Shown here: positions 5,496 through 6,473 of the stretch, piece after piece | How the letters are laid out: the number at the start of each line of letters is the position of its first letter | Position numbering within the stretch: the first letter of the stretch is position 1 | Notes under the pieces: generated by a model | The model's database searches: none | What the model was told of the DNA's origin: nothing | Seen by the model: only the letters and a program-made list of their open reading frames with translations | Program-made: the position numbers and the translations under genes | Origin: an uncultured Alphaproteobacteria bacterium | Lineage (GTDB): Bacteria > Pseudomonadota > Alphaproteobacteria > CAAHEQ01 > UBA3637 | DNA: 64,000 nt | Assembly (NCBI GenBank): GCA_934216505.1 | Contig: CAKQBW010000001.1 | Location: 20,553-84,552, forward strand | Direction of reading: 5' to 3'

Positions 5496-6473
5496 ATGGA
5501 AGAGATTGTATTTCCAAATCAATTAAGAATGTTGCGCCGTGTTCGTGGGCGGCGAATGACGGAAATCGCCAAATTGCTTGGATTATCTATTTCGGCTCTC
5601 AGTAAAATAGAAAAAGGTTATCGCCGCTTAAATGCTGCGCAAATTCAAAAAGTGGCTAAATTTTTGGATTGCCCAACCGAGGTGATTTTGGTGTCTTCGG
5701 CTTCTTCTCAACCAGAGGTTTTAAAGGCCTGGCAAGACGAACAAAAGAAACGCTCAGGAATAAATTTAGGGGGGGGGCTTAAAACTTTAGGGGCAGGCTT
5801 ACGCTATATTCGGGGCCAAAAACAGATGACTTTAAATGGGGTGGCTAAGGGGGCAAAAATGACTTTGTCCGTCTATCACCGAATTGAAATGGGACAACGG
5901 GAAGTTGATGAAAAGACCTTTGAAAATATTGCCCGCTCTATGGGAATGAGTGCCGATGATTTGCAATTAAAAATTTATGAATTGGATAACGCAGGGGCTT
6001 TGGACGAATTGAAAAACAACACCAATAAAACAGGAGTGGCGTTGTTTAAGGGGGGGTATAATGACTTGCCGATGTCCCGATTGATGATGCGGGTGGCTGA
6101 ATCAAAGGAAATTACTTTGCCCATTACAGGCACTGTTTTAGAAAACGCCCAAGTAAAAATGCATCAGGACAATCCAACGGGCTCAGTGTTGTGTCCTTCT
6201 ACTTTGGCAAATGATCCAAATTTGTATGCCCTGCGTACAGTGGGAGGTCAGGCGAATGCATCTTTACCCGAAGGGGCGGTTTTGGTTGTTTCTCCCACCA
6301 TGCCTCTGCGCTTAAATGATTGGGTTTTGGTGTCCAAAGATGATCACACCTTTTTTATGCAATTAAAAGGTGTGCAATCTGACATATGTGAGGTTGTGTC
6401 TTTTGATAAAGGGAAAAAATGGACCTGTCATAAATCTTTATTGCAACGCATCGTTTGGGCCGTGTTGATTTGA
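5496..6473 (+). CDS. XRE-family transcriptional regulator with two tandem HTH_3 domains and a degenerate (Ser-less) S24/LexA-CI-like C-terminal domain
   Basis: Two helix-turn-helix blocks (LRMLRRVRGRRMTEIAKLLGLSISALSKIEKGYRRL and LRYIRGQKQMTLNGVAKGAKMTLSVYHRIEMGQREV). The C-terminus (LRTVGGQANASLPEGAVLVVSPT...NDWVLVSKDDHTFFMQLKG) matches the LexA/CI fold, but the Gly-Asp-Ser-Met nucleophile is replaced by GGQAN. An extended -10 (TGTGTATAGT, 5466-5475) and a GGAG RBS lie upstream. Confidence 0.7.
   Translation: MEEIVFPNQLRMLRRVRGRRMTEIAKLLGLSISALSKIEKGYRRLNAAQIQKVAKFLDCPTEVILVSSASSQPEVLKAWQDEQKKRSGINLGGGLKTLGAGLRYIRGQKQMTLNGVAKGAKMTLSVYHRIEMGQREVDEKTFENIARSMGMSADDLQLKIYELDNAGALDELKNNTNKTGVALFKGGYNDLPMSRLMMRVAESKEITLPITGTVLENAQVKMHQDNPTGSVLCPSTLANDPNLYALRTVGGQANASLPEGAVLVVSPTMPLRLNDWVLVSKDDHTFFMQLKGVQSDICEVVSFDKGKKWTCHKSLLQRIVWAVLI

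Follow-up and report, generated by a model that had tools for sequence, protein, structure and literature searches.

The window considered here is a stretch of 64,000 nucleotides from an uncultured Alphaproteobacteria bacterium (contig CAKQBW010000001.1, positions 20,553 to 84,552), and the gene of interest, at 5496–6473 on the + strand, encodes a putative transcriptional regulator. It is a real open reading frame (ORF) of 325 aa that starts with ATG and occurs as a single copy within the window. A Shine-Dalgarno sequence, GGAG (5485–5488, + strand), lies 7 nt 5′ of the start codon, and AAGGAG or GGAG is kept in nearly all related loci. Two genes for multi-pass membrane proteins precede the regulator and four closely spaced genes follow it. 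Our results suggest that the protein is a CI/LexA-type factor with two helix-turn-helix (HTH) modules and a C-terminal domain (CTD) of the peptidase S24 fold, from which the self-cleavage machinery appears to have been lost.

The N-terminal half belongs to the XRE/Cro-C1 type of HTH protein. Pfam HTH_3 (PF01381) matches the regulator with 66.4 bits against a cut-off of 23, in two stretches, the better of which covers residues 10–63. HTH domain 1 (residues ~9–64; 5520–5687, + strand) contains the recognition-helix region LSISALSKIEKGYRR and matches C.BclI in the PDB. HTH domain 2 (residues ~93–166; 5772–5993, + strand) is the second HTH_3 stretch and contains the family-invariant recognition-helix region LSVYHRIEMGQRE; its residues 97–158 match the XRE protein ClgR, and C.AhdI is a further PDB relative of the regulator. 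With 23% identity between them (E=9e-5), the two modules are distant duplicates. A full-length AlphaFold2 (AF2) model built on 39 homologues consists of two five-helix bundles, the first with helices at residues 9–17, 21–28, 32–39, 47–57 and 61–64, followed by a low-confidence linker and a confident β-domain. Residues 176–203 of the linker have a predicted local distance difference test (pLDDT) score below 50, and in the model the connection between HTH2 and the CTD is probably flexible. This same segment contains the motif KGGYNDLP (residues 185–192; 6048–6071, + strand), in which K185, G186, G187, Y188, N189, D190 and P192 are invariant and which is better conserved than the CTD. Mean pairwise identity within the family is 0.70 for HTH1, 0.76 for HTH2, 0.67 for the linker and 0.37 for the CTD, and both recognition helices are near-invariant.

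The CTD, a predicted S24-like pseudo-protease domain of the LexA/CI fold, occupies residues ~204–325 (6105–6470, + strand). Modelled alone (residues 196–325, 33 sequences), it reached a pLDDT of 90 and a predicted template-modelling score (pTM) of 0.82. Foldseek comparison of the CTD with the PDB gave residues 101–229 of λ cI (TMt 0.68–0.69), the CTD of LexA (0.58–0.61) and that of 186 CI (0.62), and in the viral structure set BFVD the best matches were phage proteins named ‘Repressor protein CI’ or LexA-like. In a separate fold comparison, the scores that followed the top match were 10.3 for T. maritima LexA, 10.1 for the 186 CI C-domain, 9.1 for E. coli LexA, 8.4 for SipA (a non-catalytic signal-peptidase homologue), 8.0 for P. 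aeruginosa LexA and 7.8 for UmuD′. The domain thus has the LexA-like β-fold of peptidase S24.

Similarity at the level of sequence is weaker for the regulator itself than for its family. Pfam Peptidase_S24 (PF00717) aligns with residues 234–303 of the full protein at E=0.03 and 14.4 bits, and with the CTD alone at 16.9 bits, both below the gathering score of 23.3, so that the profile does not count it as a member. Among 33 family CTDs, 20 match PF00717 at E≤1, the best of them at 1.9e-6. A CTD profile run against 1.84 billion representative proteins retrieved ordinary HTH-S24 repressors of ~200–250 aa, with E values from 1e-6 to 1e-4; both G-D-S-M and the catalytic Lys are present in these proteins, which align with the family over the whole CTD. 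Motifs common to the two groups are P-x-x-L, AYA(V/L), GD and a C-terminal h-R/K-V-V, and the structural motifs kept within the family are CP-S/x-x-L, (L/M)YA(V/I)R, GD and (Q/H)R(V/I)V. The same kind of profile found nothing in the PDB at E≤1 except one chance match, and hhalign against a single LexA sequence gave a probability of 6%, yet with the register expected. Because family CTDs match PF00717 and their profile retrieves genuine S24 repressors, the sequence evidence makes the CTD homologous to S24, beyond a mere likeness of fold. The first-pass annotation of this locus had proposed two HTH_3 modules joined to an S24-like fold. The modules are borne out by Pfam, PDB relatives and AF2; for the CTD, fold and sequence both agree, and the alignment did not turn out to be unlike S24. 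Several short matches to the CTD profile (P0122–P0130 and others) were considered as stand-alone CTD proteins and were rejected, being fragments of regulators from truncated contigs.

The catalytic columns were read from an alignment of family members, genuine S24 matches, LexA, λ cI and UmuD. Where S24 proteases carry G-D-S-M, the regulator has GGQAN (residues 250–254, nt 6243–6257), and its third residue, Q252 (codon 6249–6251, + strand), occupies the column of the nucleophile of the motif G-[DEMS]-S-M, S119 in LexA; the replacement of the catalytic Ser within GGQAN had been correctly recognised before. Family members have Ser in or next to this column in ~9 of 39 cases and V, E, N, A, M, T or a gap in the others, and none of those ~9 has the general-base Lys. 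The column of that Lys, K156 in LexA, holds M288 in the regulator (codon 6357–6359, + strand) and, across the 39 members, V in 26, A in 5, G in 4, M in 2, L in 1 and F in 1, with Lys in none. The first-pass annotation had also taken a Lys region, MQLKG, to be retained, and this has to be withdrawn as it matched the wrong Lys. K291 of MQLKG sits in the column of LexA K159, three residues beyond K156, where Lys is present in 3 of 39 members; owing to this position and lack of conservation, its resemblance to K-R-L-K-K of LexA is one of chance. The cleavage strand can still be recognised, with LPITGTVLE (LPITGTVLENAQ) aligned to LPLVGRVAAGEP of LexA, and no Ala-Gly or Cys-Gly scissile site was found in this region in any aligned family member.

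In S24 enzymes, the loss of Ser, Lys or the site alone abolishes self-cleavage, and LexA S119A and K156A are the standard non-cleavable mutants; both of these are among the PDB titles of the Foldseek matches to the CTD. The regulator lacks, among the features of peptidase S24, the Ser nucleophile, the general-base Lys, the scissile bond and a score above the Pfam threshold. Since Ser, Lys and the Ala-Gly site are all lost, and this throughout the family, the regulator is predicted to be unable to inactivate itself via RecA-stimulated autoproteolysis. A non-self-cleaving, RecA-independent factor had been predicted from the missing Ser, and the case is now stronger, given that the Lys and the Ala-Gly site are gone as well. 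The CTD also evolves faster than any other part of the protein, a pattern that fits a scaffold rather than an enzyme.

The regulator is not confined to a few strains. A protein search returned 1239 relatives at E≤1e-3, and the top 120 are all ~320–335 aa long and at least 51% identical to it. Where these are named, the public records are generic (‘helix-turn-helix domain-containing protein [Alphaproteobacteria bacterium]’). With each GTDB species represented by a single genome, relatives are encoded in at least 423 species-level genomes, nearly all of which are gut, rumen or faecal metagenome-assembled genomes (MAGs) labelled Alphaproteobacteria, such as ‘Acetobacter sp. CAG:977’; genomes of the CAG:977 type we take to belong to the GTDB order RF32. 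Distant family members, 33–41% identical to the window protein where compared, likewise come from Alphaproteobacteria MAGs. Three records with regulator contigs, from a Lactobacillales bacterium, Holdemanella biformis and Limosilactobacillus gorillae (L028, L059 and L064), are Firmicutes bins and probably reflect binning contamination.

Synteny was counted over 80 related species loci, which carry L numbers here. Their common order is multi-pass membrane proteins, the regulator, and then genes of the 175-aa, 408-aa, 384-aa and 239-aa types; the membrane genes are retained in 35–50 of the 80 loci, the regulator in all 80, and the four genes after it in 79, 67, 64 and 63, respectively. The cluster is in conserved synteny in at least 60 of the 80. 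Directly upstream of it, in L001 and L006, lie dksA, yajC, secD and secF, and downstream in the window are gltX, a gene for a YadA-anchor adhesin, tolB, rpsB, tsf, frr, uppS and fusA. In the distant lineage represented by L085, the regulator is still linked to genes of the 408-aa and 384-aa types. No relative of the regulator was found among 2.9 million contigs of IMG/VR or among the 72,556 plasmids of PLSDB. Because of the hundreds of species, the fixed synteny and the absence of relatives in these two collections, the regulator is a core chromosomal gene of its lineage and not the cargo of an island. The first-pass annotation had placed it within an island, a description that does not fit a gene in fixed synteny with secDF, gltX, tolB, rpsB and tsf that has no relatives on mobile elements.

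One record seems to say otherwise. MT835708.1 (L087), a 20.9-kb entry from a human faecal virome labelled ‘UNVERIFIED: Bacteriophage sp.’, encodes a protein 38% identical to the regulator. The complete bacterial cluster is present in it with the gene order unchanged, inspection showed no gene recognisable as phage, and the record is probably alphaproteobacterial DNA and not a phage. An origin of the regulator from a phage or a plasmid was therefore rejected, with IMG/VR and PLSDB empty and MT835708.1 bacterial in content. A 159-aa ORF that follows the regulator in this record is of low complexity and probably spurious. As regards the window itself, G exceeds C on its + strand (15206 against 10549, a skew of ~+0.18) and all the long ORFs in its first 24 kb lie on that strand, a pattern suggestive of a leading-strand region with highly co-oriented genes.

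The region upstream of the regulator contains a promoter-like pair, TTTAAA-16-TATAGT (5448–5475, + strand), which matches in 9 of 12 positions. Promoter-like matches in this region number 25 against 27 expected from shuffled sequence, and so are at the level of chance. What distinguishes the site is conservation. The box GTGTATAGTA (5467–5476, + strand) lies 29 nt 5′ of the ATG, takes in the −10-like hexamer TATAGT (5470–5475) and has no other exact copy in the window. In 52 of 75 related loci it recurs at a distance of 27–57 nt upstream of the start codon. It is likely, judging from this recurrence at the same place, to be a real promoter element. An extended −10 just upstream of the gene had been proposed; the window reads TTGTG-TATAGT, with the TG outside the canonical extended −10 register, so the proposal fails in that form, yet GTGTATAGTA is conserved.

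In most lineages that have GTGTATAGTA there is a second, upstream box, CATTTTGTCTATTT, whose TTGTCT lies 24 nt upstream of TATAGT; taking TATAGT as the −10, this second box would span about −46 to −33. The two form a bipartite promoter, CATTTTGTCTATTT-N(~20)-GTGTATAGTA, at fixed spacing, ~30–110 nt before the start of the regulator (L013 9900–10000, L048, L052). A7-N5-T7 palindromes or TTGACA-like repeats frequently stand in front of this promoter, which within ±10 kb is essentially limited to the one intergenic region. When ≤1 mismatch was allowed, 53 of 94 occurrences of CATTTTGTCTATTT and 54 of 143 of GTGTATAGTA in a total of 1.29 Mb from related loci fall in this single 250-nt bin. Class II activators, including λ CI at OR2/PRM, bind at the position of the upstream box, and by analogy this position is suggestive of autoregulation. 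The boxes TTTTGTCTATTT and GTGTATAGT were also considered as the mark of a regulon and rejected: a search of ±10 kb around the 75 loci gave no recurrence, the window contains no good second copy, and the VirB6-like genes, which have their own terminator-promoter region after secF, lack the boxes in that promoter. Autoregulation through the boxes is unproven, given this lack of recurrence and of a second copy, and given that lineages without the boxes have identical recognition helices.

Downstream of the regulator, the gaps within the group of five genes (the regulator and the four that follow it) are 25, −11, 12 and 1 nt, a spacing that makes it likely that they form one transcription unit. 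Gene 1 (6499–7026, + strand) encodes an acidic protein of 175 aa in which no signal peptide or membrane segment is evident by eye, with a conserved N-terminal module of ~60 aa; its orthologues range in length from 175 to ~1310 aa, and the gene 1 product has no Pfam, PHROG or PADLOC match. Gene 2 (7016–8242, + strand), which overlaps gene 1 by 11 nt, encodes an acidic protein of 408 aa, of which a weak relative follows the regulator in L085. A domain search of the long orthologues of genes 1 and 2 was empty. Gene 3 (8255–9409, + strand) encodes 384 aa with a signal-peptide-like N-terminus, and its homologue in L085 is found at E=5e-24. Gene 4 (9411–10130, + strand) encodes 239 aa with a Pro/Gln-rich N-terminus, one hydrophobic segment and a small C-terminal domain. 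No Pfam, NCBIfam, PHROG or PADLOC family was found for any of the four products, including those of genes 2 and 4; by eye, two look cytoplasmic and two look like envelope proteins. The gene 3 product had been called a secretin. It has no match to the Secretin domain (PF00263) at E≤1, and Secretin_N appears only marginally in its family, at E=0.015 and in 2 of 25 orthologues. No Pfam domain is on record for 78 homologues, the family profile has no relative in the PDB, and a search of 5.8 billion proteins gave no identification, so that the name secretin cannot be upheld. The best σ70-like promoter in the first 12 kb of the window, TTGAAA-17-TATAAT with an upstream TG (10137–10165, 11 of 12 positions), immediately precedes gltX, where the regulator gene cluster ends.

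The two upstream genes (943–2433, 496 aa, and 2445–5438, 997 aa, both on the + strand) encode multi-pass membrane proteins with a common CWPC motif; they are kept in 35 and 50 of the 80 loci, respectively. These proteins are related to each other and to proteins of L081 and L087 (BLASTP), and the counterparts in L081 carry Peptidase_M23 and a weak Hydrolase_2. Tandem CWPC membrane proteins, two to four per locus, occur in the window, L001, L081 (1–6907) and L087 (1568–11155). A third paralogue in L001 (3606–5393, 595 aa) scores 24.2 bits (E=3.3e-5) with TrbL/VirB6 PF04610, just short of the cut-off of 25.9, while 943–2433, 2445–5438 and their orthologues do not match this family, and neither VirB3 nor VirB4 was seen upstream in L001 and L006, the two loci with upstream genes that were scanned. 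It is a fair guess from these sequences that the neighbours encode an envelope-spanning, cell-wall-remodelling apparatus. The position of the paralogue of L001 is held in the window by an ORF of 223 aa (282–953) with repeated D/G/K/Y segments, which has no counterpart in the 80 loci and no family match. Further downstream, between gltX and tolB, the gene at 12108–13559 encodes an adhesin of the trimeric-autotransporter type with a YadA membrane anchor (E=4e-13); the L001 counterpart, of 2379 nt compared with 1452 nt in the window, has a far longer passenger region.

Taken together, the reading that we favour, with more confidence than doubt, is that the regulator is a non-self-cleaving CI/LexA-type factor whose dead S24 domain oligomerises or binds a partner, and whose own promoter heads a five-gene unit that it probably regulates. 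By analogy with the CTDs of λ CI, LexA and 186 CI, the domain would serve as an oligomerisation or partner-binding module, and in an oligomer at least four HTHs would be available to contact the DNA. With a conserved promoter of its own, the regulator would be the leading gene of the tightly packed unit, would most likely control that unit and possibly more, and would respond to a partner protein or some other signal instead of being switched by self-cleavage. Gene order makes it a candidate repressor of the surrounding genes. The DNA target, the choice between repressor and activator, oligomerisation and operon structure are the parts that we infer.

Several observations weigh against this reading. 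The pTM of the full-length AF2 model is only 0.41, and the arrangement of the domains is not fixed by it. Spacing is the only basis for the single transcription unit. The window and L001 keep only GTGTATAGTA, the upstream box CATTTTGTCTATTT being absent from the window and its closest relative, and the sub-lineage of L060–L080 is without either box, having instead the promoter TTGTAT-17-TATAAA together with identical recognition helices, so that the boxes need not be the binding site of the regulator. Inverted-repeat operators had been expected in the intergenic regions around the regulator and before gene 3, and no conserved ones were found there: the repeats at 5380–5560 are only A/T-rich palindromes (5420–5459), unconserved even in a relative of 84% identity, 6440–6540 has none, and 8200–8300 has only low-complexity A/T repeats. 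Finally, the regulator of the distant lineage of L083 is found without the cluster, its neighbours being genes for RNase E/G, a thioredoxin-reductase-like protein and Lon; taken with recognition helices that are near-invariant across hundreds of species, this is more easily reconciled with a broader regulon than with a repressor of purely local reach.

Other explanations of the protein and its position have to be set beside the one favoured here. That the CTD is still an active autoprotease, working through a different pair of nucleophile and base, is scarcely credible: the relatives with Ser in or next to the catalytic column and the conservation of E205, C233, S235, T236 and D275 might be taken to support it, but the window protein has Gln at the Ser column, the Lys column is hydrophobic in 39/39, there is no Ala-Gly or Cys-Gly site, and the CTD changes too fast for an enzyme. 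Moreover, genuine S24 proteins such as P0163 and P0164 share the conserved CP(S) and GD, which lie outside the catalytic Ser and Lys columns. It is very unlikely, too, that the regulator is the immunity repressor of a prophage, an integrative and conjugative element or another mobile island. Its best structural matches are indeed phage repressors, PHROG families of transcriptional regulators match the HTH part, the upstream genes are weakly VirB6/TrbL-like, and MT835708.1 goes under the name of a phage. However, that record holds the full bacterial cluster, relatives are missing from the virus and plasmid collections, and the gene keeps its place beside secDF, gltX, tolB and ribosomal genes in dozens of species. 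The neighbouring genes have no PHROG matches, no integrase or phage family was matched in window 282–22854 or in L001 1–5400, and all neighbours are co-directional, with no divergent cro-like gene beside the regulator.

Two further alternatives concern what the regulator controls and how it is itself controlled. It is possible, though clearly less probable than the favoured reading, that the regulator is a global, lineage-defining factor with many chromosomal targets, whose position before four genes reflects historical linkage and not dedicated control. Even between species whose CTDs share only 18–40% identity, there is little or no change in the two recognition helices or in the N-terminal arm MEEI[VI]FPNQ, a constraint typical of factors with many sites; the spread over at least 423 species genomes, the isolated regulator of L083 and the change of promoter boxes between sub-lineages with identical helices point the same way. 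What speaks for local control is that the downstream linkage is kept in 63–79 of the 80 loci and in distant L085, and that no motif recurs elsewhere within ±10 kb. A little less probable again, and overlapping with the favoured reading, is that the dead S24 domain receives a signal, either through a partner switch, for example with the 175-aa product acting through the CTD as an anti-repressor or co-regulator, or through a protease that acts in trans on the KGGYNDLP linker, as in ImmR/ImmA or DdrO/IrrE. Here the evidence comes from two lineages in which the N-module of the 175-aa protein is fused to a copy of the regulator CTD, an S24-like domain without Ser and Lys: P0124 (L081 8001–8954) and P0140 (L082 1089–1910), with BLASTP E=8e-7 to 6499–7026. 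In L081 the fusion gene comes directly after the regulator, and its C-terminal half is 54% identical to that of the regulator (184-residue BLASTP, E=1e-67), with the identities mostly in the CTD. As the order of domains is opposite to that of the genes, the fusion is not an artefact of read-through, and these two sequence clusters suggest that the downstream protein and the regulator CTD may act together, for example by heteromerisation. The invariant motif in a low-confidence linker would suit such control, and non-cleaving CI-like repressors under antirepressors are known, such as 186 CI with Tum and the Gifsy repressors. On the other hand, of the 127 profile matches, no more than two 50%-identity clusters show the fusion, the 175-aa protein of the window has no CTD, and the cluster contains no gene for an ImmA/IrrE-like metalloprotease. 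More doubtful, and going further, is the view that the regulator is the master switch of an undescribed envelope- or secretion-related apparatus, made up of the VirB6-like proteins and the four orphan genes, by which an uncultured order of gut Alphaproteobacteria would be marked out. On this view the dead S24 domain would have been re-used as a switch that works through hetero-oligomerisation with the protein encoded next to the regulator, and the fusion would be a trace of that pairing. If true, this would be a new, protease-independent form of control of a CI/LexA-type repressor.

HTH-S24 repressors such as LexA and λ CI are the textbook case of regulation by self-cleavage. The family described here keeps the S24 scaffold over hundreds of species after losing nucleophile, base and site, and has added a duplicated DNA-binding module; nature here provides a clear-cut example of a chromosomal regulator that carries an S24 pseudo-protease. 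Its practical value lies in better annotation, and the regulator and its conserved promoter box give a handle on an orphan envelope gene cluster of abundant uncultured gut and rumen Alphaproteobacteria. The finding alone opens no long-standing question. Non-cleaving CI repressors (186 CI), pseudo-enzymes of the fold (SipA) and tandem-HTH XRE proteins were already known separately, and no description of a tandem HTH with a dead S24 domain, fixed in a core gene of an uncultured lineage, was found in the literature searched.

Among known systems, 186 CI has a CTD that is non-catalytic and oligomerising; it does not cleave itself and is inactivated by the antirepressor Tum. The regulator resembles it in the fold of the CTD and in the predicted absence of self-cleavage, and differs from it in that 186 CI has a single HTH and is borne by a phage; no sequence relationship between the two was detected, and an antirepressor of the regulator is only hypothesised. 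Two XRE HTH modules in one chain, as in the regulator, are found in phiCDKH01_17 of a Clostridioides difficile phage (PMC11172241). Wmk of Wolbachia WO, likewise a tandem-HTH XRE protein, gives a weak NCBIfam match to the regulator (E=7e-4, 19 bits against a cut-off of 300). Both are phage or prophage proteins, and the likeness of the regulator to them is confined to the generic HTH. SipA, a non-catalytic member of the signal-peptidase/LexA superfamily, is a secreted pilus-assembly factor, whereas the regulator is predicted to bind DNA. LexA has a winged helix as its N-domain where the regulator has XRE HTHs, and S119, K156 and A84-G85 of LexA stand against Q252, M288 and no site; LexA is the SOS repressor, while there is no evidence that links the regulator to DNA-damage genes. 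The repressors λ CI, 434 CI and P22 C2 likewise have an N-terminal XRE-type HTH and a flexible linker, and in them the CTD drives dimerisation and higher-order oligomerisation. In contrast to repressors of the λ CI type, the regulator has two HTHs instead of one, lacks the catalytic Ser, the Lys and the Ala-Gly site on which RecA-stimulated self-cleavage depends, has an S24 similarity below the Pfam cut-off (14.4–16.9 against 23.3 bits), and is chromosomal and lineage-wide, outside any prophage. Judged by its sequence, the regulator is homologous to the HTH-S24 repressors and works like them, with a CTD that has none of the catalytic features of S24.

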